A stretch of 64,000 nt of DNA from a phage. The stretch is taken from the NCBI GenBank assembly GCA_018175075.1, contig GCA_018175075.1_4100.1. One strand, written 5' to 3'. Under the pieces are notes generated by a model. It saw only the letters and a program-made list of their open reading frames with translations, ran no database searches and had not been told where the DNA came from. The position numbers and the translations under genes were made by a program. Position 1 is the stretch's first letter; every line of letters starts with the position of its first letter. Shown in pieces: positions 1 through 64,000 of this stretch.

Positions 1-165
1 CCTATTAGGAGTGGCAGTGTGAATAACAAAGAGTGGGAAGATTACCGCAAGAAGTGCCGAGAGTTTGATAAAGAACTCACAGGTGCAGTGAACGGGGTAA
101 TGTGGGTATCTGCAATTATTGCAGTACTTGGTTTGGGTGCTATTATTATTAATAAATTATTGTAA
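1..165 (+). CDS. 3' end of CDS entering from upstream; C-terminal TM helix
   Basis: frame 1 open from window edge to TAA 163-165; ...VMWVSAIIAVLGLGAIIINKLL. Confidence 0.4.
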   Translation, partial: PIRSGSVNNKEWEDYRKKCREFDKELTGAVNGVMWVSAIIAVLGLGAIIINKLL

Positions 166-173
166 GGACTAAT

Positions 174-374
174 ATGTTTACTTTATATCTTGCAGTAGTA
201 CTAACTAATGGTGAAATCACTCGCACCGTTGGTGAAGGTGTATATAAAACACCTGATCAGTGTTACTCTGTAACTCATTGGCCTCGTGATGCTGGTGATG
301 AATCTCGCACTGAATACAAATGTATGAAGGTTAAAGGTGACTTTGTAAATCTAAAGGTTATTGAGACTAAGTAA
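174..374 (+). CDS. hypothetical protein
   Basis: 66 aa; AAGGA SD; TAATG overlap with next gene. Confidence 0.6.
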   Translation: MFTLYLAVVLTNGEITRTVGEGVYKTPDQCYSVTHWPRDAGDESRTEYKCMKVKGDFVNLKVIETK

Positions 375-892
375 TGGATATTAATGAGTTGTTGAAATTA
401 GTGTTTAATCGTGAACGCCGCGATACAAGACCAATTGAATATCAAGATGTGATACGCATTGAAACTGATTTCTGTTATGGTAAAACAACTCATGACCTTT
501 TGAATCTCTCTGGAAAACGCTATGCTGATGTTTGTTTTTCAGAGAGAAGTGATGGTTCGGAAATAACGAGTACTGATATTGTTTGTTACGCACGCAGTGC
601 TGATAAATCTTATGAAATAGAACTTATATATTCCCCTAGTTCTAAAACAAATCATCACCGCCATATTTTATATGATGTTTACACACCACCTGGTATTGCT
701 GAATATTTTGTTATTGATTATAGTACTGAAGAAAATGTGTTTCAACAAAGTTTGATTCATAACTTTGAGGTGAATGATCCATTAGTACCAAAGTTGTTCA
801 AACTACTTGACACCATAGATGTTGATTTTGAATTTGTTATGTGCATTAGAACTTCTTTATTCAATGAATTCATGGAACTTTTTAATATATGA
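374..892 (+). CDS. hypothetical protein
   Basis: 172 aa; start/stop coupled to both neighbours. Confidence 0.65.
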   Translation: MDINELLKLVFNRERRDTRPIEYQDVIRIETDFCYGKTTHDLLNLSGKRYADVCFSERSDGSEITSTDIVCYARSADKSYEIELIYSPSSKTNHHRHILYDVYTPPGIAEYFVIDYSTEENVFQQSLIHNFEVNDPLVPKLFKLLDTIDVDFEFVMCIRTSLFNEFMELFNI

Positions 893-1110
893 ATAGATAC
901 TATGTTGTGTATGAACACGTCTCTGAATTTAATAACATACGCGGGTTTTCCAGAGTAGTCACCAAGATGGATGTATTCATTCGTGCTCTTAGTGAAGTAG
1001 ATGCACTGTTTAAATTGTTTGATGAAATTACAAAGTATAACACACCTAAAACACACCGCTATGTGGAAACTGTACATAGCATTATGCTAACTGAAAGTGA
1101 TGAGGAATGA
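889..1110 (+). CDS. hypothetical protein
   Basis: 73 aa; ATGA overlap with upstream stop. Confidence 0.6.
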   Translation: MNRYYVVYEHVSEFNNIRGFSRVVTKMDVFIRALSEVDALFKLFDEITKYNTPKTHRYVETVHSIMLTESDEE

Positions 1111-1113
1111 TAA

Positions 1114-1332
1114 ATGAATTTATATCTAGTTGAAGGTTTAGTACAAGTCTATAAACCAGAAGGTGAAGGTCAACGTTTTTCACACGTAGAAGAATTTAAG
1201 TACGTTGTACAGGCTGATGGTCAGTACGATGCGGAAATTCAAGTAGATGAATCATTCCGTAAGAAAAATGAAATTGGTAAATTTCAATACCAGAACTTAC
1301 AATATAAAGTATGGCCTAGTATAAATGACTAA
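1114..1332 (+). CDS. hypothetical protein
   Basis: 72 aa; GAGGA SD. Confidence 0.6.
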   Translation: MNLYLVEGLVQVYKPEGEGQRFSHVEEFKYVVQADGQYDAEIQVDESFRKKNEIGKFQYQNLQYKVWPSIND

Positions 1333-1540
1333 GATGTGGTGGTGTCATGGTGTATATAACGTGTATGTAAATGGTAGATATAAAATGTCTAGTACCTATG
1401 CAAGACGTGTTAATGCGAACAACCAAGTTGATGCTGCTTGTGAGATCATTGAGTGGTATGCTGAGTTCAATGCACCTGACTATATGTACGAAATAGTTAC
1501 AATAAATGTTGTACAAATCGATACATCTTTGATACAATAA
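1325..1540 (+). CDS. hypothetical protein
   Basis: 71 aa; 8-nt overlap upstream; alternative ATG at 1385. Confidence 0.45.
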   Translation: MTKMWWCHGVYNVYVNGRYKMSSTYARRVNANNQVDAACEIIEWYAEFNAPDYMYEIVTINVVQIDTSLIQ

Positions 1541-1572
1541 CCACATCAAAAAAATTGCATCTGAGGATACTT

Positions 1573-2235
1573 ATGTTAGTTAATCTTAATTTCATCACTT
1601 CACCTGACTGGGCATTACGTGGAGTTTCTTTAAACTTCAAGGAAACTATGTTTGACTACATTGGTGAGTGTACATTGGTAAATGCAACTTTTGATCCAAA
1701 TCATCCGTTTTGGGCTGAAATTCATGATCCAAATGTAAACAACAATACATCTGTTATGACTATTGTCCAGACTAAACATGCAGGTATCCTTGCAGGTTAT
1801 CGACCTGCACATGCAATTGAACACTTCACTGATTACGATGTCGTGGATGAATACCCAATGATCCATGAAGATGGAAGTCTATACACATCTGAAGACTTCC
1901 GTGCTATCTTTAATAGTACTGATGATATTCTACCAAGTGGACGTCCACGTCCTGAGTCTTATCTTATGCATCCATCTTATGGTGTAGCAGATACGCTTGA
2001 ACAGATTATGAATAAGTACAAGAACCTAATTGAAGGTCCAGAAGAAATTGTCCTGTGCTATCACCCAGTACTGAAGTCTGAACAACCAAAGGATGGTGGA
2101 TGGCGTTGGCATAAGAATGGTGATTATATTGGTACTAAACGAAGTAAAGAACGTTTTGAGTACTTGTATGATGAACCAGATGTTGATGTGGTTTTGTGTT
2201 ATAATTTTATTAAGGTGAAAAAGAAATGTATCTAG
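1573..2235 (+). CDS. hypothetical protein
   Basis: 220 aa from first ATG (track uses TTG at 1555). Confidence 0.65.
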   Translation: MLVNLNFITSPDWALRGVSLNFKETMFDYIGECTLVNATFDPNHPFWAEIHDPNVNNNTSVMTIVQTKHAGILAGYRPAHAIEHFTDYDVVDEYPMIHEDGSLYTSEDFRAIFNSTDDILPSGRPRPESYLMHPSYGVADTLEQIMNKYKNLIEGPEEIVLCYHPVLKSEQPKDGGWRWHKNGDYIGTKRSKERFEYLYDEPDVDVVLCYNFIKVKKKCI

Positions 2236-2465
2236 TACTAAGTTTTGTTGTTGCACTATTGTTTATGTTTTATCCTACACTAGTAGCATTAGCCACTAAA
2301 CGACCGATTGTAGATATCACTACTGTATTCTTGCTAAACGTGGCATTAGTACTGGTTTCTATTATCATTCCCGTGAGCTTTACTGTTATTGATATTATTT
2401 CGGTATTACTCTTCGTAATCAGTTATCTTATGCTTATTGAAGAAAAACCAGTTGACAACCATTAG
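2226..2465 (+). CDS. small membrane protein
   Basis: 79 aa, three hydrophobic helices. Confidence 0.6.
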   Translation: MYLVLSFVVALLFMFYPTLVALATKRPIVDITTVFLLNVALVLVSIIIPVSFTVIDIISVLLFVISYLMLIEEKPVDNH

Positions 2466-2479
2466 TAGTACTGTATAAT
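2452..2479 (+). promoter_or_regulatory. sigma70-type promoter
   Basis: TTGACA-N16-TGTATAAT with AGTACT abutting the extended -10; overlaps the 3' end of 2226 gene. Confidence 0.55.
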
Positions 2480-2525
2480 GGTTCCTGTAGTCTGAAACTT
2501 AACACTTAAACTTGAGGTAAAAAAT

Positions 2526-2852
2526 ATGCTATCAGTACTAATTTCAATTCCGTCTTTAATTCTGATTTGGCTTCTGGTTTACGAATGCTTTATTACTGAT
2601 GATAATGATAAAAAAGAGTTCTCTGAGTTGTTTATGCTTGATTCACCGATTGTGCGTATTTTCTATACAGTCGTTGTGGTTTCAGTAATTGTATGGGTTT
2701 TGAGTTTTATCTTCCCACTCGGTGCAGTAGTTAAAACTTTGGATTTAGTTGAGAACTTTGTTGCAATTATGTGGCTAATCAAAGCACTATTTGCAGGAAA
2801 TGTTAAAATTTGGATTGATATTATCAAATTCAAGTTCACGAATAAGATGTAA
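2526..2852 (+). CDS. small membrane protein
   Basis: 108 aa, hydrophobic helices; GAGG SD. Confidence 0.6.
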   Translation: MLSVLISIPSLILIWLLVYECFITDDNDKKEFSELFMLDSPIVRIFYTVVVVSVIVWVLSFIFPLGAVVKTLDLVENFVAIMWLIKALFAGNVKIWIDIIKFKFTNKM

Positions 2853-2878
2853 CAGTCAAAATACCTCTATAGTATTAA

Positions 2879-2915
2879 ATACTTCTGTACATATATATAG
2901 TACAGAAGTATTTCT
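2879..2915 (+). terminator. intrinsic terminator
   Basis: 12-bp stem ATACTTCTGTAC/GTACAGAAGTAT followed by TTTCT. Confidence 0.6.
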
Positions 2916-2930
2916 CGTTAGAGGTTTGTT

Positions 2931-3290
2931 ATGAAAAGTTATATAAAATTAATAGCACTTGTGTGTGCATTATTTTCATGTTTTAGTTATGGTGCAGCAG
3001 CAGAAACATATTGTCGTAGTACTAAGGGAACGTGGCATGTATTGACTAACGACCCTAGAAATGGTAAAAATATAGTTGTTGATGGCGTGATTTATCGTTT
3101 TAAAGTAGAAAGTATTATTGGTAATAAAAAAATCTCGACTTATAGAGATGATTCTGGTACATTAGCAAACGTAATATTAATTGTAGACCCAAGAACTGGT
3201 AATGGTGATATCTATATAGTAATTTACTTGGACTCATCGGTACGCCGTGACCTAGATATAGATAAATTGAACTTACACTGTGAAATATAG
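2931..3290 (+). CDS. secreted small protein, two-Cys family
   Basis: signal peptide MKSYIKLIALVCALFSCFSYGAAA; Cys near both ends of mature part (YCRS...LHCEI). Confidence 0.65.
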   Translation: MKSYIKLIALVCALFSCFSYGAAAETYCRSTKGTWHVLTNDPRNGKNIVVDGVIYRFKVESIIGNKKISTYRDDSGTLANVILIVDPRTGNGDIYIVIYLDSSVRRDLDIDKLNLHCEI

Positions 3291-51135: not shown

Positions 51136-51139
51136 TCTA

Positions 51140-53317: not shown

Positions 53318-53463
53318 AAGAATTCTTATTCGAAGTAGTGTTTCAAGGTGTCGGTAGTAACCAACTGATTCGATCAAGTGGTTACAATGTCAACCAGGCA
53401 TGGAATAACATTAAACAAATGTACCCGAACGCTATCACCTATCGCAACCCGAAAGAAGTTTAA
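53314..53463 (+). CDS. 49-aa small protein
   Basis: ATGA coupling; MKEFLFEVVFQGVGSNQ... Confidence 0.45.
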   Translation: MKEFLFEVVFQGVGSNQLIRSSGYNVNQAWNNIKQMYPNAITYRNPKEV

Positions 53464-53477
53464 AAATAATTGAAAAA

Positions 53478-53560
53478 GGGATTGACTCCGGTCAGTCCCT
53501 TTGCTATTATATACGCATAGAAACAAATCAGCCCACCGGGTGCATAAATGTATCTATTGT
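53478..53560 (+). promoter_or_regulatory. fused terminator-promoter hairpin + GGGTGC-core element, copy 8
   Basis: GGGATTGAC-TCCG-GTCAGTCCC; TTGACT-N17-TATTAT; ..GCCCACCGGGUGC.. Confidence 0.55.
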
Positions 53561-53600
53561 TTGCTGGTGGCTAGTACTGAAAACTATTTTAAAAAAGTAC

Positions 53601-53744
53601 TTGCATTGTACTTAGAATAAAGTATAATGTTTTACATCAGGACGGGGAACGAAACAAGTAACCCCGTTAAGTAGTCCAGGAGTAAGACATACGAAAAACT
53701 CCCCTGATAAAATAGTTTGACAATAGAAAGTAAACGAGTATAAT
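53601..53744 (+). ncRNA. conserved ~80-nt leader RNA L2 between tandem promoters
   Basis: near-copy of L1 with ACGGGG/CCCCGU stem variant; downstream gene unrelated to that of L1. Confidence 0.4.
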
Positions 53745-53777
53745 ACTCACATCAACCACTGATAAGGAAACATAAAA

Positions 53778-54053
53778 ATGCGGATTCTACTGACAGCTAA
53801 CGAAATCGAACAAGTACTGACTACTAACCTGGAAGACTGGAAACGTGAAGCAGATATCCAGGCGGTTCAACAGCTTAACGATGAGTTAACGCCGGATGAC
53901 TTAAGCAAGATTGTAGATCCTCAATTCTACGAAGATATCCACGACACCGCGTTAAGCGTCGAGGATGTACTAGATAAGCACTACATTGATATTGATTTGC
54001 AGGTTTACGGTCGTAAAAACTTTATCACTATTCACGACATTTACAATAATTAA
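53778..54053 (+). CDS. hypothetical acidic protein
   Basis: 91 aa; tandem promoters + conserved leader upstream. Confidence 0.65.
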   Translation: MRILLTANEIEQVLTTNLEDWKREADIQAVQQLNDELTPDDLSKIVDPQFYEDIHDTALSVEDVLDKHYIDIDLQVYGRKNFITIHDIYNN

Positions 54054-54056
54054 GTA

Positions 54057-54118
54057 TTGACAAAGTATCTTAGTACTGTATAATAGTTTACATCGAGTGA
54101 GGGGAAACGGTTCCCCTC
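54057..54118 (+). promoter_or_regulatory. mini-gene promoter + 5'UTR hairpin unit
   Basis: TTGACA-N16-TGTATAAT + GAGGGGAA-ACGG-TTCCCCTC; near-identical copy at 54328-54390. Confidence 0.6.
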
Positions 54119-54141
54119 CTAACAAAGAGAGAGAAATAAAA

Positions 54142-54324
54142 ATGGCTAAGTGCACTATCTGCAAGAAAGAAATAGTATTAGTTCCAAGTGCCCGTGAACG
54201 TGCCGCTCGGTTCGGTGGCAAAGCGTCAGACTATACAAAAATGTTTACTACCCATGCAGCTTGCCAGGTAGCAAAACGTTCACAAGAAAGCGTAGAATTA
54301 ATGCGTAAACTTTCCAAAAAATAA
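54142..54324 (+). CDS. small Cys-containing protein (possible Zn ribbon)
   Basis: MAKCTICKKEIVLVP...THAACQV; promoter+hairpin. Confidence 0.6.
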   Translation: MAKCTICKKEIVLVPSARERAARFGGKASDYTKMFTTHAACQVAKRSQESVELMRKLSKK

Positions 54325-54411
54325 GTATTGACAAAGTATCTTAGTACTGTATAATAGTTTACATCAAGTGAGGGGAATGGTTCCCCTCCTAACTAAAAGA
54401 GAGAAATAAAA

Positions 54412-54735
54412 ATGGCTATGATCCTTGCCCAGAAAGTAGAATTGAAAATTGTAACCTCATTTGACATTAACGTTAATCGGTGGACTGATTCACACGGCAA
54501 TACTTACCACTCTTGCTACGTGTCTGCGTTAATTGGCGACCGCTGGGAAGACCTGGGACATGAAACCTTTACATACGGTTACGGCACACAAGGCGAATAC
54601 ACGGGCTTGGAGATCATTAAAGAAACCGTTATAGGTTTCAACCCGAAAGAAAAAGTTATTCACCAAATCGAAAAAGAGATTAACAAAGAAATAACAGTTC
54701 GATACAACGATGTAAAACGTAAGAAAGACATGTAA
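54412..54735 (+). CDS. hypothetical protein (paralog of 47590..47913)
   Basis: NRWTDSHGNTYHSCYVS...FTYGYGTQ...VKRKKDM. Confidence 0.7.
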   Translation: MAMILAQKVELKIVTSFDINVNRWTDSHGNTYHSCYVSALIGDRWEDLGHETFTYGYGTQGEYTGLEIIKETVIGFNPKEKVIHQIEKEINKEITVRYNDVKRKKDM

Positions 54736-54830
54736 TAGAATCCATTTAAAGTACTATTTGACATTGCCCAGATAGTACTTTATAATAGACTCTAACTTGT
54801 AGTACTAACTTAACTAATAGGATGTATACC

Positions 54831-55226
54831 ATGATTACTAAATTCTACGCTACCCGTGAAGCTGCCCGTATTGTTGCACGCGAGGAAGGAGCAGCATTTA
54901 AAGACATGGGCAAAGATGCACCGAAAGGCCAACGCTGGGCCGTACAGTTCAAAGAGATCTCTGATATTGTGAATTCACCTGAGCCAGTACTAACAGCAGC
55001 AGAACTAAAACGAGCGGATATGCTGGCGGCAATACTTGACGCACAAGATGAGTTTATCGCTGGTTCTGATATCAAAGTACAGGTAAACCACACCGCATGG
55101 ACTCACGCGGATCACCTGGCAAACCTTAAGCGTCCAAGTGAACTGATTCGCAACCAGAAAGAGATCCGACATGATCGTAAGGGTAATCGTGTAACAGTAT
55201 ACAGTAAACGCCGCCAGGTTATCTAA
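54831..55226 (+). CDS. hypothetical protein (paralog of 41555..41818)
   Basis: MITKFYATREAARIVAREEGAAFKDMG...DRKGNRVTVYSKRR. Confidence 0.65.
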   Translation: MITKFYATREAARIVAREEGAAFKDMGKDAPKGQRWAVQFKEISDIVNSPEPVLTAAELKRADMLAAILDAQDEFIAGSDIKVQVNHTAWTHADHLANLKRPSELIRNQKEIRHDRKGNRVTVYSKRRQVI

Positions 55227-55248
55227 TAACTTGCAGTACTAACAACAC

Positions 55249-55273
55249 GGCGGGATCAGTTCCCGCCTTTTTT
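55249..55273 (+). terminator. intrinsic terminator
   Basis: GGCGGGA-TCAG-TTCCCGCC + T6. Confidence 0.7.
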
Positions 55274-55287
55274 ATAGGACAAACAAA

Positions 55288-55542
55288 ATGATTAAGGTTC
55301 AACTATATAAAGATAACATCTTACGGGTACACTATAAAGCACCTCAGAGAATCATCACAAAGGCCGTACAGCTTGCTAATGAGTTTATTAATGGTAACCT
55401 ATTACCTAGGAAGTTAAGCAACGGGAAACTGCGTGTAATCGACGTGGACACTAACAACAGGATAGTAATCGAGAACACAGGAAAGATAAACCTTTATGAG
55501 CATCAACAATACAATAAGAAAATAAAACTAATATCACGTTGA
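55288..55542 (+). CDS. hypothetical protein
   Basis: 84 aa; follows terminator at 55249. Confidence 0.6.
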   Translation: MIKVQLYKDNILRVHYKAPQRIITKAVQLANEFINGNLLPRKLSNGKLRVIDVDTNNRIVIENTGKINLYEHQQYNKKIKLISR

Positions 55543-55595
55543 CAGTACTCAAATGTTTTAGTACTATGTACACATACCAACACGGGAGAAACAAA

Positions 55596-55814
55596 ATGAA
55601 ATTATCTAAAATCGAAAAGAAAACTATTGATGAAGCAGTTAAGCACGGTTATACCTTTCGTAATGATTCACATTTTACCAATTTTCAACAAGGGTATCGT
55701 ACTATTAAAAAACTAATTGACAAAGGTTTATTAGTTGAAGTCAATAACGGTAACGGTATCGAGTATCAACCAACACAAGACGCATTTTATTTTAAGAAAT
55801 ATAATATTATCTAA
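55596..55814 (+). CDS. hypothetical protein
   Basis: 72 aa from MKLSKIEKK; TTGACA-N17-TACTAT promoter at 55540. Confidence 0.6.
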   Translation: MKLSKIEKKTIDEAVKHGYTFRNDSHFTNFQQGYRTIKKLIDKGLLVEVNNGNGIEYQPTQDAFYFKKYNII

Positions 55815-55872
55815 TTGACAGTACTCAAATGTTTTAGTACTATATGTACATACCAACACGGGGAGAAACAAA

Positions 55873-56115
55873 ATGATTACTTTAGAAAAACGTATCAAAG
55901 AAACTACATCGCTGGTGGAACTGTTAACAGTACTGAAATGTAAAACAACACCATTCAGCACGCCGGACTTTATTAATATGGTTGATGTTAATGGTCGCTA
56001 TCGTATCACGGTCGTGAATGGTGCGGCGAAAGTATTCAGTACTAAAAACACTAAGGAAGTGATCCACGCCGTTAATGTTAAAAAAGTAGTTGCCATTGAT
56101 AGTAAAGTACTGTAA
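55873..56115 (+). CDS. hypothetical protein
   Basis: 80 aa; near-identical copy of the 55540 promoter upstream. Confidence 0.6.
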   Translation: MITLEKRIKETTSLVELLTVLKCKTTPFSTPDFINMVDVNGRYRITVVNGAAKVFSTKNTKEVIHAVNVKKVVAIDSKVL

Positions 56116-56146
56116 GATAGTTTCATTAACTCAAGGAGTAAATGCA

Positions 56147-56731
56147 ATGCGTAATTATACTAAATTCATCCGTACACTGTCAGAAATGGAAACCAACAAA
56201 GAGATCCTTTCAGCTTGTCGGTTAGCTGGCCTGGAGATCATCGGGGCGGGATCTTCCCGTATAGTTTTCGCTTTAAATGATCGGTTAGTGATTAAGGTCG
56301 CGAATTGTGATGCGGGTGTAGAACAAAATGAAACTGAATGTAAGGTATGGAATTTTTTAGACTATGACCGCCCTCAGTTGAAACAGTACTTTGCAAAGGT
56401 GCATATGCATTTATGCGATCCTGATAATATGTTTATCGTTATGGATCGGTTGAGTACTGCAAGCAAAGGCAGTGTGAAGCACGTTAACGCGTGCAATGAA
56501 TTAAAGTACAATATTAAACGTAATGCAATCGAACGCCAGCACCGCTTTGCTGATGCACTACAACACGTTGATGATACATTATCAACACTAACGATAAGAG
56601 ATATCAGAAAACAGAATATCGGCCAGGATCGTAATGGACTTATTAAAGTACTTGATTACGGTTTAACCCGCAATATCTGGAATCAGTACTATAAAAAGCG
56701 TGATGTAGCAGCAAGTAAGGTAACACGATAA
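56147..56731 (+). CDS. protein-kinase-like protein (mini-kinase 3)
   Basis: IIGAGSSRIVF...LVIKVA; RDIRKQNIGQDRNGLIKVLDYG; AAGGAG SD. Confidence 0.55.
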   Translation: MRNYTKFIRTLSEMETNKEILSACRLAGLEIIGAGSSRIVFALNDRLVIKVANCDAGVEQNETECKVWNFLDYDRPQLKQYFAKVHMHLCDPDNMFIVMDRLSTASKGSVKHVNACNELKYNIKRNAIERQHRFADALQHVDDTLSTLTIRDIRKQNIGQDRNGLIKVLDYGLTRNIWNQYYKKRDVAASKVTR

Positions 56732-56745
56732 AAAAGATTAAAAAA

Positions 56746-56832
56746 GGGATTGACTCCGGTCAGTCCCTTTGCTATTATATATTCATTGAGAGATAACTCA
56801 CTGACCCATAGGGTGCATAAGTGTATCTATTA
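56746..56832 (+). promoter_or_regulatory. fused terminator-promoter hairpin + GGGTGC-core element, copy 9
   Basis: same hairpin; TTGACT-N17-TATTAT; ..UGAGAGAUAACUCA..ACCCAUAGGGUGC. Confidence 0.55.
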
Positions 56833-56953
56833 TATAAGTATTCAGTACTGGAAACTATTTTTAAAAAGTACTTGCATTGTACTTAGAATCAAGTATAATG
56901 TTTTATATCGAGAGGGGGAAATGGTTCTCCCTGGTACATTAAGGAATAAAATC

Positions 56954-57175
56954 ATGACTACAATGACTTGCATTCACGCTTCAAACCTGCTTAATGATGC
57001 GGCCTTTAATGTTGATTCAGAATATCAATGTTATCGGGATGAAAATAAAAAAGTTTTTGTAGTTGATAATAATGGTTTCCATATTGAATTACAATCCGGC
57101 TTCACTGGTGTTGATGGTAAATCAGTATGGGGCGTACAGGATGATAAAGGTACATATCATTTTAAACGTAATTAA
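56954..57175 (+). CDS. hypothetical protein
   Basis: 73 aa from MTTMTCIH; the long track ORF runs through the regulatory module. Confidence 0.6.
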   Translation: MTTMTCIHASNLLNDAAFNVDSEYQCYRDENKKVFVVDNNGFHIELQSGFTGVDGKSVWGVQDDKGTYHFKRN

Positions 57176-57261
57176 GTATTGACAAAGTATATCAGTACTG
57201 TATAATAGTTTACATCAAGGGGAGAATAGTTCTCCCCACACCAATAAAAGGAAACAAAATT

Positions 57262-57534
57262 ATGTCCAGCTACTCCGCTACTATGATCATTAAAGATATG
57301 AACGGTAATCCTACTTCTGCTGGTGGATCATTTGGAAACATTAATTTAGATGGTCGGTTATCCATGCAATCAGCCATTGATGCAGCTAAAGAAGTTTTTA
57401 AGAATGAATGTACTGTAAGCAAGCTGGATTATATGGGATTCGCTATCGAGAAAACTAATCGTTTTGTGAACTACAAAAAGCCTATGATGATTGATACTAA
57501 CCTGAAAGCTAACGAAGTGGAATACTTATTATGA
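57262..57534 (+). CDS. hypothetical protein
   Basis: 90 aa; promoter+hairpin. Confidence 0.65.
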   Translation: MSSYSATMIIKDMNGNPTSAGGSFGNINLDGRLSMQSAIDAAKEVFKNECTVSKLDYMGFAIEKTNRFVNYKKPMMIDTNLKANEVEYLL

Positions 57535-57722
57535 CAGTAGAAGAAGTTAAAAAAGTACTGGCAGTACTACGCTATCATAATCATTGTAAGGTGAAGAATG
57601 ATCCTGATTATCTTGATTCATCCCTGGAGGAAGACACCTTAAACGCGATAAGCTATATGCAAACATTAGCAAAGCGTATGACCGAAAAGAATAGGCCGGA
57701 CTATATAGGAAATAAAATTTAA
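57531..57722 (+). CDS. hypothetical protein
   Basis: 63 aa; ATGA coupling. Confidence 0.6.
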   Translation: MTVEEVKKVLAVLRYHNHCKVKNDPDYLDSSLEEDTLNAISYMQTLAKRMTEKNRPDYIGNKI

Positions 57723-57809
57723 AAAGTACTTGCATTGTAGTTAGATTAACGTATAATGTTTTATATCGAGAGGGGGAAATGGTTTCCCCTCAAGTCCAGG
57801 AGATACACC

Positions 57810-58073
57810 ATGAACACTATCGAAATCACTATCAATGCACACGTATACGACAACGTAGTACTGCAAACTACTATGACCGCTAATGATACCAGTACTTTGC
57901 GGAATACTGTTATTAGTGCCGTATGTGCTGCAATCGGTGATGTCGCCCTGGAAAATGCAAAACACGTAAACGATGGTTTCACTATGTGCAAACGTGATAA
58001 CGCAAAACATATCATCGTGGAAGGTTACGGCGGTGTAGAATTTAATGTTTATATGAAAAAAGTACTTGCATAA
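57810..58073 (+). CDS. hypothetical protein
   Basis: 87 aa from MNTIEITI; 3' end (KKVLA*) overlaps the next -35. Confidence 0.65.
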   Translation: MNTIEITINAHVYDNVVLQTTMTANDTSTLRNTVISAVCAAIGDVALENAKHVNDGFTMCKRDNAKHIIVEGYGGVEFNVYMKKVLA

Positions 58074-58140
58074 TAACTAAAACAAAGTATAATGTTTTGC
58101 ATAGGGGGAGATATCCTCCCCCACTAAAAGGAGTAATAAA

Positions 58141-58365
58141 ATGGCTAACTTTGATGAACTGATGCGGGAAGTAGCTACCCTGGCAGAAGAGAAGAAATCA
58201 TTCGATTCTATCTATAACACCGCTCACCGTGATTCAGTACTGGCATGTACTCAGGATCAAAAAGATGAACTAATCGCCACCTATCATGAAGCATGGAAGT
58301 ACTACCGCCAATGGGAGAAAGAAGAAAGCGAGTCTACCATCAACGGCATCAATAATCTAATCTAA
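58141..58365 (+). CDS. hypothetical protein
   Basis: 74 aa; promoter+GGGGGAG/CTCCCCC hairpin. Confidence 0.65.
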   Translation: MANFDELMREVATLAEEKKSFDSIYNTAHRDSVLACTQDQKDELIATYHEAWKYYRQWEKEESESTINGINNLI

Positions 58366-58371
58366 AAGTTT

Positions 58372-58425
58372 TATTTCAGTACTATTGACATAGCTTGATA
58401 GTACTGATGTAATAACTTTACTAAC
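58372..58425 (+). repeat. type-2 promoter repeat (variant)
   Basis: ..TCAGTACTATTGACATAGCTTGATAGTACTGATGTAAT. Confidence 0.55.
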
Positions 58426-58441
58426 TACAAGGGGAAACATC

Positions 58442-58699
58442 ATGGAACAATTCACACAATATCGGGTAAATCCTCAAGCTATGGCCTACGTAGAAGACCA
58501 TAAAACGTTACCAGTACTGCAACCAGTTAAAGGCCATATCTATCGTGGCCTTGCCTGGGATACGGCCCAGGATGGATATAAAACCGTCGCAGTGGGGATG
58601 TATTGCGGGAATGGTGAATGGTTTGATCCTAACAATCCGATTGCACTTGACAGTACTGAAAAAATGAAATGGGCCGACTACATCGAAGATATTTCATAA
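58442..58699 (+). CDS. hypothetical protein
   Basis: 85 aa; type-2 promoter repeat upstream. Confidence 0.6.
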   Translation: MEQFTQYRVNPQAMAYVEDHKTLPVLQPVKGHIYRGLAWDTAQDGYKTVAVGMYCGNGEWFDPNNPIALDSTEKMKWADYIEDIS

Positions 58700-58789
58700 A
58701 AACTATTTGACAGTACTAACCAGTAATGTATAATGTTTTACATAGAGCGGGGGAATAGTTCTCCCGCCAATAGTTTGGAGTAAAACATT

Positions 58790-58990
58790 ATGTCTATCGC
58801 TATCGCCCTGGTTGAAGTACTGAAAGAAGCTAAAGCCAACCTTATCGATGTACAGATTAAGGAATTGCAAAACGGCTTAATCGGCTGTACTTGTACCGCT
58901 GGCGGTGCGGCAGACTATCGAGAACACGAATCACTCGAATCACTGGTTCGGTATCTTACCATGATCGTTGATGATTGGAGAATCATCTAA
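58790..58990 (+). CDS. hypothetical protein
   Basis: 66 aa; promoter+hairpin. Confidence 0.6.
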   Translation: MSIAIALVEVLKEAKANLIDVQIKELQNGLIGCTCTAGGAADYREHESLESLVRYLTMIVDDWRII

Positions 58991-59009
58991 CAAAAAAAGA
59001 ATAAAAAAA

Positions 59010-59090
59010 GGGATTGACTCCGGTCAGTCCCTTTGCTATTATATACGCATAGACAAAAACTAGCCCACAGGGTGCATAAGTGTATCCAAA
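59010..59090 (+). promoter_or_regulatory. fused terminator-promoter hairpin + GGGTGC-core element, copy 10
   Basis: same hairpin; TTGACT-N17-TATTAT; ..UAGACAAAAACUA..GCCCACAGGGUGC. Confidence 0.55.
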
Positions 59091-59238
59091 ATATATAGTT
59101 AATAACGGTGAGTAACTATCTGCTGGTGGAGTGAAAACTATTAATAAAAAAAAGTATTGACAAAGTATATCAGTACTGCAATAATGTATCTCGTAGGGCG
59201 GCAATGGTGCGACGGCCCACAAAGTTAGGAGATTCAAA

Positions 59239-59571
59239 ATGACTACTTCAATCGCTATCGTTAAAGCTTTCATCCGTACTAATGTTTCCTCTGTATTCAT
59301 CGACGGCCTCGACCGTAACGTAGAATACTCAATCATTATCGCACAAACGGCAAACGGTTCTCGGTACATCCTGAATGATAGTGAAGCAAATCACTACTAC
59401 TTCACTAAAGCCACTGGCTTTAAACGCATCGATGCTGATGTAGTATACGCTAAGATGAATAAGCTGGTAGACAAGATTAACGCGAAAGGTACTATCGATT
59501 TACAGTACTGGACCGAAACCGATCCAGAATATGGATCTCACCGCTACCTGAATCCAGGTATTAAAATGTAA
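59239..59571 (+). CDS. hypothetical protein
   Basis: 110 aa; TTGACA promoter at 59158; AGGAG SD. Confidence 0.65.
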   Translation: MTTSIAIVKAFIRTNVSSVFIDGLDRNVEYSIIIAQTANGSRYILNDSEANHYYFTKATGFKRIDADVVYAKMNKLVDKINAKGTIDLQYWTETDPEYGSHRYLNPGIKM

Positions 59572-59578
59572 AAAGTAC

Positions 59579-59640
59579 TTGCATAGTACTTAGAATCAAG
59601 TATAATGTTTTACATAGAGAGGGGGAAATGGTTCTCCCTC
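59579..59640 (+). promoter_or_regulatory. mini-gene promoter + 5'UTR hairpin unit
   Basis: TTGCAT-N16-TATAATGTTTTACAT + GAGGGGGAA-ATGG-TTCTCCCTC. Confidence 0.6.
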
Positions 59641-59660
59641 CTACTTTAAGGAGTATTATC

Positions 59661-60062
59661 ATGACCTTCACTATCACTTCTTACGCTGACGTTTTAGTAC
59701 TGGCCCGGACTTTTGGTAAAGCTGGCCTTGAACACGCTGTAAGTAATGGTCATATGCACCCTGAATATTGCCGCATCATTGGAAGCTGTAAACGTTGGGC
59801 CGTGTCCCGTAACATTGAGATTGAAAACTTCAATGACGGTAACAACGAATATACAGTTGATGCAGTATTCGAATCCGTTGATCTCGGCGGTATCTATAAC
59901 ACTAACCTGAATGATGTGCGTATCGTTCGCACGGGGTTCGGTGCTTATGATGTATCTATCCGTGAAGCTATGGACAAGGGATACATTAGCAAGGACCAGT
60001 TAGCTTACATCATGCAGCAAACTAAGGAACGTAACGAAGCACGTACTATCTTAGGGCTGTAA
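59661..60062 (+). CDS. hypothetical protein
   Basis: 133 aa from MTFTITSY; promoter+hairpin+AAGGAG SD. Confidence 0.65.
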   Translation: MTFTITSYADVLVLARTFGKAGLEHAVSNGHMHPEYCRIIGSCKRWAVSRNIEIENFNDGNNEYTVDAVFESVDLGGIYNTNLNDVRIVRTGFGAYDVSIREAMDKGYISKDQLAYIMQQTKERNEARTILGL

Positions 60063-60130
60063 GCAATACACATCACCAAACATCATAGGCCGCTCTCTAG
60101 CGGCCTTAACTATATCAGGAGGGCATACAT

Positions 60131-60340
60131 ATGTTCTATACAGTATACAGCGTTCTAGGCACTATTGCAGGCGTACATGATAACGTCAATGATGCTATGC
60201 GTACAGTACTGCAACAGGTTCCACTAAAGCCTAAGACCATTAAGCAGATGACAGCACGACTAACCAGGGCGACCGATGGCGTGGAAGTATGGCAGGACTA
60301 CGGGGATACACAGATAATCGTTAGCGTAACGAAGGATTAA
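60131..60340 (+). CDS. hypothetical protein
   Basis: 69 aa; AGGAGG SD; last gene of the G+C-richer block. Confidence 0.6.
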   Translation: MFYTVYSVLGTIAGVHDNVNDAMRTVLQQVPLKPKTIKQMTARLTRATDGVEVWQDYGDTQIIVSVTKD

Positions 60341-60368
60341 TGCGTAAAGGGATCTAGTACTGATTCAG

Positions 60369-60434
60369 AAAAAAGTCAAGGCGTTTTTAAAATTATGCGT
60401 TAAAAAAATGCATAGGTAATCCCTTGACTTTTTT
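60369..60434. repeat. 13-bp inverted repeat at the block boundary
   Basis: AAAAAAGTCAAGG (60369-81) / CCTTGACTTTTTT (60422-34). Confidence 0.5.
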
Positions 60435-60531
60435 GAAATAAAAGGGATTGGACTATGGCAAAATGCGTAGGGGGCTAAAGGGCGGGTAACCTTAGCGACT
60501 TCGATAAAGGGGTATTACGAATAAAATGTTA

Positions 60532-60559
60532 TTGACTTTTTATATGAATCGTATAAAAT
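60532..60559 (+). promoter_or_regulatory. sigma70-type promoter of the GTNYQ array
   Basis: TTGACT-N16-TAAAAT, about 30 nt upstream of 60590. Confidence 0.45.
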
Positions 60560-60589
60560 ATGATTGATATTAATTTTAAGGGAGTCCCT

Positions 60590-60787
60590 ATGCGTATTTT
60601 AACTAAAGAACAGCACCACGAAAGACTTATCAATAACATGGCTATGATAATGTATAAGTCCCATGACCGTGGTATTGCCTATAAGCGTGAATTAATTATG
60701 GCACTATTCATTGGAACTAACTTTCAGGAAAGGTATGTCAACGATTGGATTTGGTATTTAATTGAAGATATAACGAGTAAACTATGA
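60590..60787 (+). CDS. small protein, GTNYQ tandem family
   Basis: MRILTKEQHHERL...FIGTNFQERYV...ITSKL; promoter at 60532. Confidence 0.65.
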   Translation: MRILTKEQHHERLINNMAMIMYKSHDRGIAYKRELIMALFIGTNFQERYVNDWIWYLIEDITSKL

Positions 60788-60984
60788 AAATGCGTATTTT
60801 AAATAAAGAAGAATATCAATCACTGTTACGTAAAAACTACGTAAAGATTTACAACACAGACACACATGTAGAACGAATGGAGTTATACCTTTTGATTACA
60901 TTGGGAACAAACTATCAGGGTAGATGGGTGTGGCAATATATGGATACATTGAAAAATAAAATATTGTCCACGAGGAAACAATGA
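60784..60984 (+). CDS. small protein, GTNYQ tandem family
   Basis: MKMRILNKEEYQSLL...TLGTNYQGRWV; ATGA coupling. Confidence 0.65.
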   Translation: MKMRILNKEEYQSLLRKNYVKIYNTDTHVERMELYLLITLGTNYQGRWVWQYMDTLKNKILSTRKQ

Positions 60985-61190
60985 AAACTATAACACGAAC
61001 CCAATCATACGGTCTTATCTTGAAATACATGGACTTAATGGTGGATATCAGCAAAGACCTGCCTAAAACTGAAATTGAAGTTGCAAGAGCAGAGATCCGC
61101 ATGTTGGCTGTACTGAACACAAACCATCAGGAAGAGTATGTTCAAGATTGGATTCGATTTTTAATAGAAGATATTAAGAGTAAACTATGA
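60981..61190 (+). CDS. small protein, GTNYQ tandem family
   Basis: ...IRMLAVLNTNHQEEYV...IKSKL. Confidence 0.65.
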   Translation: MKTITRTQSYGLILKYMDLMVDISKDLPKTEIEVARAEIRMLAVLNTNHQEEYVQDWIRFLIEDIKSKL

Positions 61191-61399
61191 TTATATTAAC
61201 ACCTGAAGAATATAAGAAACGTTTTAAATCTGTCCAGGCTGAAATATTACTTATATACCTTTCAAATGCAGATCTTAACTTATCAAGGGTAATGGAGAAG
61301 GATTTACTTATGGGTGCATTTTTGGATACAGACTTTCAGGAGTATTATGTAGGAGAATACTTTATTGCACTTCAGAACCACATTAAGAGTAAACTATGA
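61187..61399 (+). CDS. small protein, GTNYQ tandem family
   Basis: MIILTPEEYKKRF...FLDTDFQEYYV...IKSKL. Confidence 0.65.
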   Translation: MIILTPEEYKKRFKSVQAEILLIYLSNADLNLSRVMEKDLLMGAFLDTDFQEYYVGEYFIALQNHIKSKL

Positions 61400-61611
61400 T
61401 TATTCTAGAAAAATCATATCAATATACTGAACGCATCGCTGCCAGACAACTTGAAATCCTCATAATATACGAAGAGACTTCTGATTTAAACTTAGCCGAG
61501 GTATTGGAAAATGAAATACTTTTGGGTGCATTCTTGGGAACAGACTATCAGGAGTATTATGAGGAAAAGTATTTGTCATCTCTTGAGAAATACGTCAGGA
61601 GCAAACTATGA
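61396..61611 (+). CDS. small protein, GTNYQ tandem family
   Basis: MIILEKSYQYTERI...FLGTDYQEYYE...VRSKL. Confidence 0.65.
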   Translation: MIILEKSYQYTERIAARQLEILIIYEETSDLNLAEVLENEILLGAFLGTDYQEYYEEKYLSSLEKYVRSKL

Positions 61612-61835
61612 AACATTTAAGTAATATAGAGAAGAATAAAATTATCATTGCTGTAATAAACAAATATTTTACACTTCCACAAAAAGAATGTTTATCTATA
61701 AGGGAACACAGGATAAACACCACCGAGATTCGCATGTTGGCTGTACTGGGGACTAACTTCCAAGAAGGCTATGTTCATGAGCACATCGTTGCACTCACTA
61801 ATTACATAATGGACAAATGTAATGAACATCATTAA
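61608..61835 (+). CDS. small protein, GTNYQ tandem family
   Basis: ...IRMLAVLGTNFQEGYV. Confidence 0.65.
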   Translation: MKHLSNIEKNKIIIAVINKYFTLPQKECLSIREHRINTTEIRMLAVLGTNFQEGYVHEHIVALTNYIMDKCNEHH

Positions 61836-62046
61836 TAACTTTGAATACGAGGCCCGTGCTAAGAGTGCCAGAAAAAAAGAGAACACCATTTACTTCACTA
61901 TGATGTACTTACAATGGACTGAAATTGAAGAAAAGGTTGCTGAAGTATGGATGTTGGAATTCATGGGGACGCAGTATCAGAATAGGTTTGCGGGTGAGTA
62001 TATCAATGTTCTTATGAAACAAATAGAAAGAAAGGAAAAGAACTAA
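61822..62046 (+). CDS. small protein, GTNYQ tandem family
   Basis: ...MLEFMGTQYQNRFA. Confidence 0.6.
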   Translation: MNIINNFEYEARAKSARKKENTIYFTMMYLQWTEIEEKVAEVWMLEFMGTQYQNRFAGEYINVLMKQIERKEKN

Positions 62047-62204
62047 TGGTTTTCATTAACATATCTGACCAACTCGATACTAAACTAGAAGTCGAGCAGA
62101 GTGAGGGATGGATGTTGTACTTTCTTGGAACTTCTCATCAGAATTTTTATATCCATGAACACATAGTTGCACTCACAAATCTAATAAGGGATAAATGTAA
62201 ATGA
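62046..62204 (+). CDS. small protein, GTNYQ family, N-terminally truncated member
   Basis: 52 aa, below track cutoff: ...MLYFLGTSHQNFYIHEHIVALTNLI. Confidence 0.45.
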   Translation: MVFINISDQLDTKLEVEQSEGWMLYFLGTSHQNFYIHEHIVALTNLIRDKCK

Positions 62205-62458
62205 AACACTTGACGAACGATGAATATTCACTTAGAATTCGAAAGCTCACCCCAGAAGCAAGAGTAATCTACGATGACGATGCACTTTCATGGAACGAGA
62301 TGAAAGTTAAAGTTCATGAGCTATGGTTGCTGTACTTTGTGGGAACCCAATATCAAGAGAAATATTGTACCGATTATCTTGAACAACTAATGGATCTTAT
62401 ACAGATAAAACTAAATGAACGAATTGTGGAAAAATATGAAAACTTTATCAAGCTCTGA
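62201..62458 (+). CDS. small protein, GTNYQ tandem family
   Basis: MKHLTNDEYSLRI...LLYFVGTQYQEKYC. Confidence 0.65.
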   Translation: MKHLTNDEYSLRIRKLTPEARVIYDDDALSWNEMKVKVHELWLLYFVGTQYQEKYCTDYLEQLMDLIQIKLNERIVEKYENFIKL

Positions 62459-62687
62459 GTATCAAGCCGCCCTCTTCTCTATTCTTAACACCCTTAGAAA
62501 AAACTATGCATTACATGGTGCACCTGAATTGGATGTTATCAACGGTGATGTTTATCTTATGAAATTCATTGGAACAAACTATCAAGAACTGTTCATTCTA
62601 CGATACCTATCAGCATTAAGAAACCAAATCCAATATAAAACCGTCAAGGCCAAAAAAGAATGGAATAAACAATGCGACAAAGACTAA
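62436..62687 (+). CDS. small protein, GTNYQ tandem family
   Basis: MKTLSSSEYQAAL...MKFIGTNYQELFI. Confidence 0.6.
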   Translation: MKTLSSSEYQAALFSILNTLRKNYALHGAPELDVINGDVYLMKFIGTNYQELFILRYLSALRNQIQYKTVKAKKEWNKQCDKD

Positions 62688-62923
62688 ATCACAAAATGTA
62701 TTGTAAACTATTGCAGACACTGGCACAGAAACACTATGACACTGTATCTGAAATATTACCCTATGATATCATGCGTTTAATTCATAGTGAGGCAGAGATG
62801 CTTGTACTGATGACAGGCACTGATAAAAAAGCAATTGCCAAATCAATAGATATGTTCATCGAAGCACAATGTCAACACATTAGAACCGAGATATGGAGAC
62901 GAGAGAATGATAACACTAAATGA
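62672..62923 (+). CDS. small protein, GTNYQ family (diverged)
   Basis: ...EMLVLMTGTDKKAIA; same size and position. Confidence 0.55.
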   Translation: MRQRLNHKMYCKLLQTLAQKHYDTVSEILPYDIMRLIHSEAEMLVLMTGTDKKAIAKSIDMFIEAQCQHIRTEIWRRENDNTK

Positions 62924-63122
62924 GTTTCAGTATCATTGGAGGTTACAAGCTATAAGAAGGAAAGTTGTTAGTATTTCTTTAGACAAGTCTATTGCACAAG
63001 AGGACAAATGTGTTATAATAGCTGAAATGAAGTTGGGTGCTTTCGTAGGAACAAACTATCAAAACATCTACACTGACGTATTGTTAAGTGCCTTACGTAA
63101 CAAGGTGATATCTAAAGAATGA
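62907..63122 (+). CDS. small protein, GTNYQ tandem family
   Basis: MITLNEFQYHWRL...LGAFVGTNYQNIYT. Confidence 0.65.
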   Translation: MITLNEFQYHWRLQAIRRKVVSISLDKSIAQEDKCVIIAEMKLGAFVGTNYQNIYTDVLLSALRNKVISKE

Positions 63123-63337
63123 GAAAATTACAAGGCTTTGAATACATCAGACTCCTGAAAACATGTGCCAACAGAAGAGTAAAGATTCAATCTGATAAGA
63201 GCATCCCTGCCAACCTAAAACATGCAATGGTAGCTGAACTCTATGCAGGGGCACTCATAGGGACAAACTATCAACAAATGTATATAGACATGTGGGTTGA
63301 TGCATTAGTCAAGGTGACCCAAAGTAAATGCAAATGA
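63119..63337 (+). CDS. small protein, GTNYQ tandem family
   Basis: ...YAGALIGTNYQQMYI. Confidence 0.65.
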   Translation: MRKLQGFEYIRLLKTCANRRVKIQSDKSIPANLKHAMVAELYAGALIGTNYQQMYIDMWVDALVKVTQSKCK

Positions 63338-63546
63338 TTAATTTAAGTAAAGATGAATATTATGAACGTCTTGCAAAAACTTATCCAGCACGTAACGCCG
63401 TTTATAATAGTAACATTATTGAACGCTCAAAGAAGTTGATTGTAGTAAATGAGATTAAGATGCTTTCAGTCTTAGGAACAAACTATCAAGAGAATGCTGT
63501 ACTGTTGTTAATTGATGCCCTCCAGAGAGAGATACAAAGTAAATGA
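63328..63546 (+). CDS. small protein, GTNYQ tandem family
   Basis: MQMINLSKDEYYERL...MLSVLGTNYQENAV. Confidence 0.65.
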   Translation: MQMINLSKDEYYERLAKTYPARNAVYNSNIIERSKKLIVVNEIKMLSVLGTNYQENAVLLLIDALQREIQSK

Positions 63547-63791
63547 TTCATTTATCTTACCATGATTATCAAAAACGTTTAAATGCATCAAGGGATATAA
63601 GGATTCAAATCTTCAATAACAAAAAATTGAAACCTGACACCAGAAGAATCAAAATGATAGAAGCAGAGTTATGCAACTTCCTGGGGACGAACTATCAGGC
63701 AGGTAAGGTAAAAAACTATCTTAGAGAACTAATGATTTGTATCGAAAATAAATGTGAGGTTGATGAACATGCAAATGATCAATTTAAGTAA
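63543..63791 (+). CDS. small protein, GTNYQ tandem family
   Basis: ...ELCNFLGTNYQAGKV. Confidence 0.65.
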   Translation: MIHLSYHDYQKRLNASRDIRIQIFNNKKLKPDTRRIKMIEAELCNFLGTNYQAGKVKNYLRELMICIENKCEVDEHANDQFK

Positions 63792-64000
63792 AGATGAATA
63801 TACCGAGCGTATGACAAAAATTACGCACAAACGTAATACAATCTATCACAACCCAGAAATCCAACACAGTAAGAAAATGATTATGATGCGTGAGTTAAAG
63901 ATGGGTGTATTCTTAGGAACAAACTATCAAGATACAGAAGTAAATCGCTTAATCGCGGAGTTACTACTGGAAATCAAAGGTAAGCTGTACTTTCATCAAA
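63769..64000 (+). CDS. small protein, GTNYQ tandem family (3' end outside window)
   Basis: MQMINLSKDEYTERM...MGVFLGTNYQDTEV; open to window edge. Confidence 0.6.
   Translation, partial: MQMINLSKDEYTERMTKITHKRNTIYHNPEIQHSKKMIMMRELKMGVFLGTNYQDTEVNRLIAELLLEIKGKLYFHQ

Follow-up and report, generated by a model that had tools for sequence, protein, structure and literature searches.

Why does a phage genome from which many palindromes have been purged carry one palindromic hexamer, AGTACT, hundreds of times? The question is raised by a 64,000-nucleotide stretch of phage DNA (contig GCA_018175075.1_4100.1; called the window throughout), whose source is a 121Q/PBECO4-like (RaK2-related) jumbo myovirus of Escherichia coli, genus Asteriusvirus. 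A sequence-only reading of the window had described a roughly 10-fold, frame-independent excess of the word and suspected selection at the level of the DNA. The comparisons described below indicate that AGTACT is a word under positive, DNA-level selection, which acts as purifying selection with turnover of individual sites. As to its role, we tentatively favor the view that AGTACT is a selected, clade-specific self-mark that is read on duplex DNA by a putative symmetric phage factor and that also acts as an early-promoter operator, although we hold this to be somewhat short of probable. Full-text searches of the literature on these phages returned no description of the motif.

The excess is stronger than first estimated. 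The base composition of the window (A 0.337, T 0.303, G 0.184, C 0.176) predicts 21.6 copies of AGTACT, and 283 are present, which corresponds to an approximately 13-fold excess. Dinucleotide-preserving shuffles (n = 100) gave 22.2 ± 4.8 copies with a maximum of 33. The longer form CAGTACTG was found 64 times against 0.7 expected, and the 12-mer TTCAGTACTGAA, previously noticed in DNA free of open reading frames (ORFs), was found 6 times against 0.01 expected, with five of the six copies outside ORFs. AGTACT alone is enriched among the palindromic hexamers of the window (12.8-fold; the runner-up reaches 1.75-fold). A hand count of 19 copies in 38761–40720 was exact, whereas the 12 copies assigned to 1–3000 are really 11, because the twelfth starts at 3018. 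The local contexts claimed for the motif were all located, namely hairpin stems (GCCAGTAC..GTACTGGC), positions abutting −10 boxes (CAGTACTGTATAAT and CAGTACTGGCATAAT), and positions 5′ of −35 boxes (AAAAGTACTTGCA). Counted by flanking sequence, the 283 sites represent 240 independent contexts (224 unique), and the excess is not confined to a few repeated cassettes.

The six-base core is strict. One-mismatch variants of AGTACT are present in the window at 1.0–1.8 times expectation, and the flank preference is limited to C at position −1 (46%), where G is disfavored (7–8%) and the information content is 0.33 bit. Selection for an extended palindrome or hairpin was rejected, because the −1 and +1 flanks are independent of each other (306 complementary pairs against approximately 290 expected). 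The sole depleted one-mismatch neighbor window-wide is AGGACT/AGTCCT, with 6 copies against 21 expected.

Coding sequence does not account for the excess. In tests based on 149 called ORFs, 186 sites lie within ORFs, as compared with 54.2 ± 5.4 (maximum 72) when synonymous codons are shuffled and 24.3 ± 5.3 when codon order is shuffled; the ratio is thus far from 1 when codons are preserved. The claim of frame independence also stood, since all three codon phases are occupied on both strands (phase counts of 58/32/62 for genes on the plus strand and 27/3/3 for those on the minus strand). Of 155 Ser-Thr pairs, 85 use AGT-ACT against 23 expected, and the AGTACT-encoding versions of x-Val-Leu and x-Tyr-x number 65 against 12 and 34 against 7, respectively. 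The density is 3.4/kb in coding DNA and 9.4/kb in intergenic DNA, which is the most enriched. AGT makes up 33% of the Ser codons of the window, a share inflated by AGTACT, and 121Q has an annotated tRNA-Ser with anticodon ACT that would read AGU (L002:25464-25555).

Selection can also be traced in the divergence between genomes. Within the genus, 53 kb of the window could be aligned to 121Q at 7.7% divergence. AGTACT is intact in both genomes at 212 of 249 sites (85%), as compared with 70% of 1,823 phase-matched control hexamers. Per-base divergence is 5.0% at AGTACT sites and 8.4% in their flanks; in intergenic DNA the values are 3.7% and 9.6%, and at third codon positions AGTACT sites diverge by 8.7% versus 13.1%. 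There is turnover, with 37 sites specific to the window and 27 specific to 121Q, and the losses are scattered over all six positions with no excess of C-to-T changes. In orthologous genes compared across genera (46–63% protein identity), exact codon-aligned AGTACT is shared at 15 of 67, 5 of 26, and 14 of 61 positions, or about 20%, where chance predicts about 0.2 shared positions per comparison. The suspicion of DNA-level selection is therefore backed by codon choice, by the lower divergence of sites than of flanks, by positions kept across genera, and by the clade-wide persistence of the trait amid a purge of palindromes.

The trait extends over the genome and stops at a sharp phylogenetic boundary. 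The complete 121Q genome has 903 copies of AGTACT against 100 expected, with each 5 kb bin enriched, and 194 copies of CAGTACTG against 4.4; its strongest over-represented 7-mers and 8-mers all derive from AGTACT. Counts from genomes or genome samples gave 119 copies against 12 expected in RaK2 (Klebsiella), 253 against 14 in GAP32 (Cronobacter), 106 against 14 in CBB (Pectobacterium), and 79 against 7 in pEa_SNUABM_12 (Erwinia). The strict core thus stands at 9–18 times expectation in the four genera Asteriusvirus, Alcyoneusvirus, Mimasvirus, and Eneladusvirus, all of which infect Enterobacterales. The corresponding counts are 3 against 14 in PA5oct (Pseudomonas), 3 against 6.7 in Atu_ph07 (Agrobacterium), 1 against 5.6 in Phosso (Sinorhizobium), and 0 against 6 in XacN1 (Xanthomonas). 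Among IMG/VR contigs of at least 10 kb, all nine whose capsid is 89–92% identical to that of 121Q combine an AGTACT excess with absence of GCGC, the excess being present in every contig at or above 85% identity, and the 34 analyzed at 64–69% show no excess or a weak one (at most approximately 3-fold). The uncultivated IMGVR_UViG_3300027985_000435, at 72% capsid identity, has 14 copies against 4.6 (about 3-fold), with AGTACT as its top palindrome and GCGC at a normal level; it may be an intermediate lineage that could help to identify the responsible gene. In E. coli K-12, a 100 kb sample contains 6 copies (0.06/kb), and sites in the phage are 40–100 times denser.

The sites are evenly spread. 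Spacing had been named as a check, and in homogeneous regions of 121Q it proved more even than chance, with coefficients of variation of 0.74–0.86 as compared with 0.98–1.00 in simulations (p = 0.001–0.04 in four of five regions). The largest gap is at most 2.1 kb in 348 kb of 121Q. Coding density in 121Q is 1.65–2.9/kb in the replication, metabolic, and structural modules, and the early region has 4.5/kb in its coding DNA and 11/kb between genes. The sites therefore show two tiers, an even genome-wide layer of approximately one per 400 bp and a dense, promoter-placed layer in the early region of the terminal repeat.

The position of the dense tier in the window was fixed by comparison with fEgEco12, whose direct terminal repeats of 20,993 bp have been determined experimentally and whose DNA was cut by ten enzymes as predicted in silico (PMC13070987). 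The first and last 25-mers of that repeat have exact matches in the window at 39039 and 60468–60492, which places the terminal repeat at 39039–60492. This plus-strand early region holds 143 sites (6.7/kb). Upstream of it, small plus-strand genes (1–20096) have 3.2/kb, a minus-strand array of RCC1-like paralogues (20097–34300) has 2.9/kb, and small plus-strand paralogues (34301–39038) have 7.2/kb. An ORF-poor stretch at the left boundary (38961–40686) contains 19 sites, including TTCAGTACTGAA 12-mers at 40100, 40566, and 40619. The excess had been assigned to the whole of 1–64000, but no site lies beyond 60356. The final one, 60356–60361, is 136 bp inside the terminal-repeat boundary, and the segment that directly follows the repeat (60493–64000, plus strand), in which 14 paralogous ORFs of about 70 amino acids overlap one another in an array, has none (0/kb), although the genome-wide density would predict about 9. 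Recent import of this segment was rejected because it has matches only in Asteriusvirus genomes and its paralogues are old (27–51% identity). These paralogues have a GTNYQ motif in common, and the segment is strand-asymmetric, with nine GTACT and no AGTAC.

In the terminal repeat, AGTACT is built into promoters. The repeat contains 107 sigma70-like promoter matches as compared with 66 ± 9 in shuffles, and eleven perfect TTGACA-N16/17-TATAAT promoters fall within 20 kb (40500–60492). AGTACT is present in 29 of 37 strong plus-strand promoters of the repeat, as compared with 19% of random segments of the same size. It starts at three registers, −39/−42, −29/−30, and −19/−20, approximately one helical turn apart, and either adjoins or overlaps the −35 hexamer or abuts the −10 hexamer. 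In the dual-site class, AGTACT is followed by 0–1 base, TTGACA, 9–10 bases, a second AGTACT, 1–3 bases, and TATAAT. The plus-strand promoter at 47221–47256 has AGTACT at 47221–47226, a single a, TTGACA at 47228–47233, a 9-base spacer, AGTACT at 47243–47248, gg, and CATAAT at 47251–47256; other plus-strand copies are at 47513–47548, 50348–50383, and 50610–50644, and one starts at 58378. A three-site perfect consensus promoter on the plus strand at 54750–54806 (−35 at 54758–54763, −10 at 54781–54786) has AGTACT at 54750, 54774, and 54801. The −35-abutting class is represented on the plus strand at 41141–41173 (aaAGTACTTGCAA, a 16-base spacer, and TATAAT) and has about 10 paralogous copies in the repeat, for example at 41822, 42380, 43182, 46982, 48788, and 49604. 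The −10-abutting class is represented on the plus strand at 54057–54084 (TTGACA, 9 bases, AGTACT, g, TATAAT), and others start at 50043, 52768, 54328, and 57179.

The dual-site architecture is common to 121Q, RaK2, GAP32, CBB, and one 366 kb uncultivated genome. Its exact pattern has 27 matches in IMG/VR, 19 of which are in five Rak2-like genomes. The class is kept in Asteriusvirus, Alcyoneusvirus, and Mimasvirus, with spacer and downstream sequences that differ among the genera. AGTACT accordingly holds a fixed and conserved position relative to −35 and −10, as an operator does. In 121Q, no link was seen between AGTACT and the late promoters with the motifs TATAAATA or ATAAATA.

We therefore turn to what the favored self-mark and operator would involve. 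A two-fold symmetric (dimeric), phage-encoded protein would occupy the AGTACT sites. Its genome-wide occupancy would mark or coat the phage DNA and enable phage-directed processes to distinguish it from host DNA; such processes might be protection while host DNA is broken down, compaction, or the loading of machinery for replication or recombination. At early promoters, where it would sit next to the −35 and −10 hexamers, this protein would also switch transcription by the host polymerase, most simply to shut off early genes. The sequence-only reading had offered three roles. Genome marking fits the even spacing and a site density 40 to 100 times that of E. coli; a DNA-binding or transcription factor of the phage fits the promoter registers conserved in three genera; and a modification or nicking target gained no support on its modification side.

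Several observations weigh against a phage-encoded reader. A Pfam search of the window ORFs gave no DNA-binding domain, and the annotation of 121Q offers no candidate for a protein that reads AGTACT. A sharp 6-bp site with a weak flank preference is more typical of restriction and modification enzymes than of repressors. The placement in promoters could partly reflect tolerance of a 6-mer there, and the promoters form paralogous families. Moreover, late intergenic DNA of 121Q is no richer in AGTACT than coding DNA, and the paralogue array that ends the window is free of the word.

Known systems resemble the proposed self-mark and operator in part. Chi, which is read by RecBCD, and the DNA uptake sequences (DUS) and uptake signal sequences (USS) are over-represented self-recognition words that are asymmetric, orientation-dependent, and read by cellular machinery. 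AGTACT is likewise over-represented, found within genes in all frames, and far denser in self than in foreign DNA, and DUS often lie in terminator inverted repeats, as AGTACT does in minus-strand terminators. However, AGTACT is palindromic and belongs to a phage. It also does not behave as a Chi-like hotspot, as it differs from GCTGGTGG and breakpoints are not concentrated at it: mosaic breakpoints between the window and 121Q lie within 10 bp of AGTACT 7 times as compared with 6.0 expected, and a role in recombination joints was rejected. Chi itself occurs 29 times in 121Q (18 + 11 per strand) against about 5 expected, a roughly 6-fold level like that of coding-bias words such as CACCAGCA.

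For the operator part, stoperators of cluster A mycobacteriophages are 13-bp asymmetric sites, approximately 24–36 per genome and tied to orientation, and TF1 has preferred sites at early promoters in the terminal redundancy of SPO1, where it recognizes hydroxymethyluracil DNA and no fixed word. In both cases one phage protein has many genome-wide sites, including early promoters, and transcription is shut down; early promoters lie in the terminal repeat of SPO1 as they do in the window. AGTACT differs from both in being a 6-bp palindrome present in about 900 copies.

A bolder extension of the self-mark concerns GCGC, which is absent from the window (51 expected) together with 25 GC-rich palindromic hexamers, and absent from 121Q (178 expected) together with 24 palindromic hexamers. 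It is also absent from RaK2, GAP32, CBB, and pEa_SNUABM_12, and is retained in the four relatives on non-enteric hosts, near expectation in three and at about half in XacN1. The E. coli K-12 sample has 715 copies (about 7.2/kb). The absence of GCGC accompanies the excess of AGTACT in the sampled phages, with the uncultivated lineage at 72% capsid identity as the one exception; CACGTG and GTGCAC occur at normal frequency in 121Q despite the purge. Jumbo phages with unmodified DNA may sort self from host DNA by two opposite sequence marks, a proposal that we consider decidedly improbable as it stands. The positive mark AGTACT (about 2.6–6.7/kb in phage and 0.06/kb in E. coli) would be recognized by a phage protein that both licenses or protects DNA and sets the timing of early promoters, and GCGC (none in phage, 7/kb in host) would expose only host DNA to attack. 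If true, such sorting would be a functional equivalent of the hydroxymethylcytosine-based discrimination of T4 without base modification.

The best surviving alternative is an epigenetic target, which we judge unlikely. A phage methyltransferase or other modifying enzyme, possibly an unrecognized one, would mark AGTACT, and the density would persist either because it serves a function (discrimination of strand or age, protection, or early promoters sensitive to methylation) or because biased repair linked to the modification produces it. AGTACT, the ScaI/Eco255I site, has the strict, sharp edges of a classic type II target, and one would expect a palindrome-purging phage to shield a restriction target that it carries 900 times. 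These two considerations keep the model alive. ScaI or RsaI would cut AGTACT-rich genomes into very small fragments unless the sites were modified. Phages normally avoid type II restriction targets; AGTACT is the identical strict hexamer palindrome but is the reverse of avoided, with a 9- to 18-fold enrichment while 24 other palindromic hexamers are absent.

The enzymes available in 121Q do not fit this alternative well. Only two DNA methyltransferases are recognizable, gp91 (PF00145, 5-methylcytosine, m5C) and gp417 (PF05869, Dam-type), the latter with the sole NPPY-type motif in the 121Q proteome. In its favor, gp417 represents a clade-specific Dam-type subfamily, with at least 60% identity found only within the AGTACT-rich clade, and so tracks the trait. 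However, its nearest characterized relatives methylate GATC (PMC4190342). Bisulfite data on RaK2 DNA, which is reported to resist Dam-sensitive enzymes, indicate methylation of the CpG type (PMC3622015), and AGTACT contains no CpG. On these grounds gp91 and gp417 look like a CpG-type m5C enzyme and a GATC-type N6-methyladenine enzyme, and a recognizable AGTACT methyltransferase was left without support, although an enzyme of an unrecognized type may exist. The lack of C-to-T bias among the lost sites is evidence against both m5C and a repair drive, and the one-mismatch neighbors are not depleted; a very-short-patch or biased-repair drive was rejected for these two reasons.

The same alternative draws on HIP1, the cyanobacterial highly iterated palindrome GCGATCGC, which is the closest analogue of the phage word. 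HIP1 and its alternates co-occur with cognate orphan methyltransferases, and their function is debated between selection and drive (Elhai 2015, PMC4390886). Both HIP1 and AGTACT are short exact palindromes in many-fold excess, at about one per 350–1000 bp, in coding and non-coding DNA and across a clade, and AGTACT shows this excess in both kinds of DNA in the window as well as in 121Q. The differences are that AGTACT is an AT-rich hexamer in a virus, that 121Q has no recognizable cognate methyltransferase for it, that its losses and undepleted neighbors lack the signature of biased repair, and that it is built into sigma70 promoters at fixed registers. Furthermore, no alternate palindrome replaces it in sister lineages, as none was found to be highly iterated among 35 IMG/VR contigs of 64–72% capsid identity.

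A replication or repair entry site, at which a phage enzyme would start its work, is distinctly unlikely. The enzyme might be a T4-like primase, whose five-base primer and one cryptic template base would add up to six; a nickase serving recombination-dependent replication; or a factor for strand discrimination in mismatch repair. The even coverage of 121Q, without a gap above 2.1 kb, keeps this model alive. A palindrome would serve both strands at once, every gene class carries sites, the trait tracks a clade with a common core replisome, and the primase of the phage has diverged too far to match any Pfam family. However, primases of the DnaG and T4 types read trinucleotides, and to our knowledge a six-base requirement would be unprecedented. 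The fixed promoter registers and the threefold extra density of the early region would be left unexplained, and no MutS, MutL, or MutH-like genes are annotated in 121Q.

We consider it very unlikely that AGTACT is read by a factor of the Enterobacterales host and has been accumulated by the phage so that this factor can be recruited or exploited. Every AGTACT-rich genus has Enterobacterales as hosts, and the trait is missing from relatives that infect other bacteria, but host range and phylogeny are confounded here. On the same host, T4 (7 copies against 7.7 expected), T5 (10 against 10.3), and rV5 (2 against 10) have no excess, and a general host effect was rejected. One candidate reader was SlmA. 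Its site GTGAGTACTCAC, palindromic and read by a dimer, has the same central six bases. SlmA depends on G1, T2, and a purine at position 3, and position 6 may be either pyrimidine; G1, T2, A4, and G5 are required in the 12-bp site GTRAGYRCTYAC (PMC3020112). The phage sites lack the required flanks, with G at −1, where SlmA requires a purine, in 8% of the 121Q sites, and the phage keeps exact the central position at which SlmA accepts either pyrimidine. SlmA was rejected, as 121Q has no full sites and half-sites make up 20 of 1806 (1.1%) as compared with 2.8% by chance. TrpR was also rejected because its determinant ACTAGT is not enriched in 121Q (74 against 100 expected); the TTCAGTACTGAA given for TrpR promoters is simply an alternative output of a motif finder.

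Finally, that AGTACT has no function and arises as a side effect of codon usage, of amino-acid motifs, of repeated promoter cassettes, or of biased mutation is extremely improbable: an order-4 Markov model of the window predicts 229 of the 283 copies because the pentamers AGTAC and GTACT are themselves enriched, and some promoter and terminator copies are paralogous, but synonymous shuffling, the many independent contexts, the enrichment of intergenic DNA, the undepleted neighboring words, the conservation of sites above flanks and across genera, and the under-dispersed spacing all oppose it.

Signature words such as Chi, the uptake sequences, and HIP1 either have led to a molecular machine that works on the whole genome or remain open problems. 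AGTACT is a tractable case, with cultivable coliphages, approximately 900 selected copies per genome, four genera with a sharp phylogenetic boundary, and a promoter read-out. Finding its reader would reveal a new layer in the biology of jumbo phages, be it self-marking, the shut-off of early genes, or entry of the replication machinery, and might help to explain why highly iterated palindromes exist. Excess of AGTACT combined with absence of GCGC provides a simple metagenome diagnostic for the clade.

The three-site promoter at 54750–54806 precedes an early gene pair (54822–55542), which encodes a 134-amino-acid phrog_8127 protein and then an 84-amino-acid ParE-like toxin (PF24732, E = 6e-11). 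ParE toxins usually poison DNA gyrase. The pair is syntenic in RaK2, GAP32, and CBB, a paralogue of the 134-amino-acid protein lies at 41519–41818, and together the two genes resemble a toxin-antitoxin-like module within the terminal repeat. The antitoxin-like protein is a weak lead as the reader of AGTACT. The promoter of the pair has three AGTACT sites in Asteriusvirus, one in RaK2, and none in GAP32 or CBB, and an autoregulated toxin-antitoxin operator was rejected because the three-site promoter is not kept in Mimasvirus.

The minus-strand array at 20097–34300 comprises about 12 RCC1-like paralogous genes of roughly 400 amino acids, which carry the database label 'DNA condensation' proteins. 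A terminator hairpin based on CCAGTACTGG follows each of these genes. Judged from sequence context, GCCAGTAC-TCT-GTACTGGC at 27374–27392 (minus strand), 3′ of an RCC1-like gene, is probably an intrinsic-terminator hairpin, and related minus-strand AGTACT hairpins are at approximately 22575–22595, 28185–28203, 29450–29470, 30690–30710, and 33078–33100. The window has no Rfam families and no tRNAs.

A different hairpin arrangement is found in the terminal repeat, where a −35 element (TTGACT) lies inside the 12-bp-stem hairpin AAAGGGATTGACTCCGGTCAGTCCCTTT, followed by GCTATTAT, at 49480–49515, 53475–53510, 56743–56778, and 59007–59042. This element might serve as terminator and promoter at once or as a promoter gated by structure; GAP32 early promoters have the same hairpin-embedded −35 design. 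Many of the perfect promoters in the repeat are followed by a conserved 5′ leader hairpin (gttttacatcgagRgcggggaa...ttccccgc), and these repeated cassettes of promoter and stem-loop recall mobile regulatory cassettes known from T4-type phages. At its left end, the terminal repeat starts with the hairpin-forming AGTAGGCAGAGGAAGTCTGCC, 13 bp past an AGTACT site. A degenerate tandem repeat of 16/24-nucleotide units (CTAGACGGCTAAACGG) occupies 39845–39944, approximately 800 bp inside that end and within an ORF-poor stretch of 2 kb.

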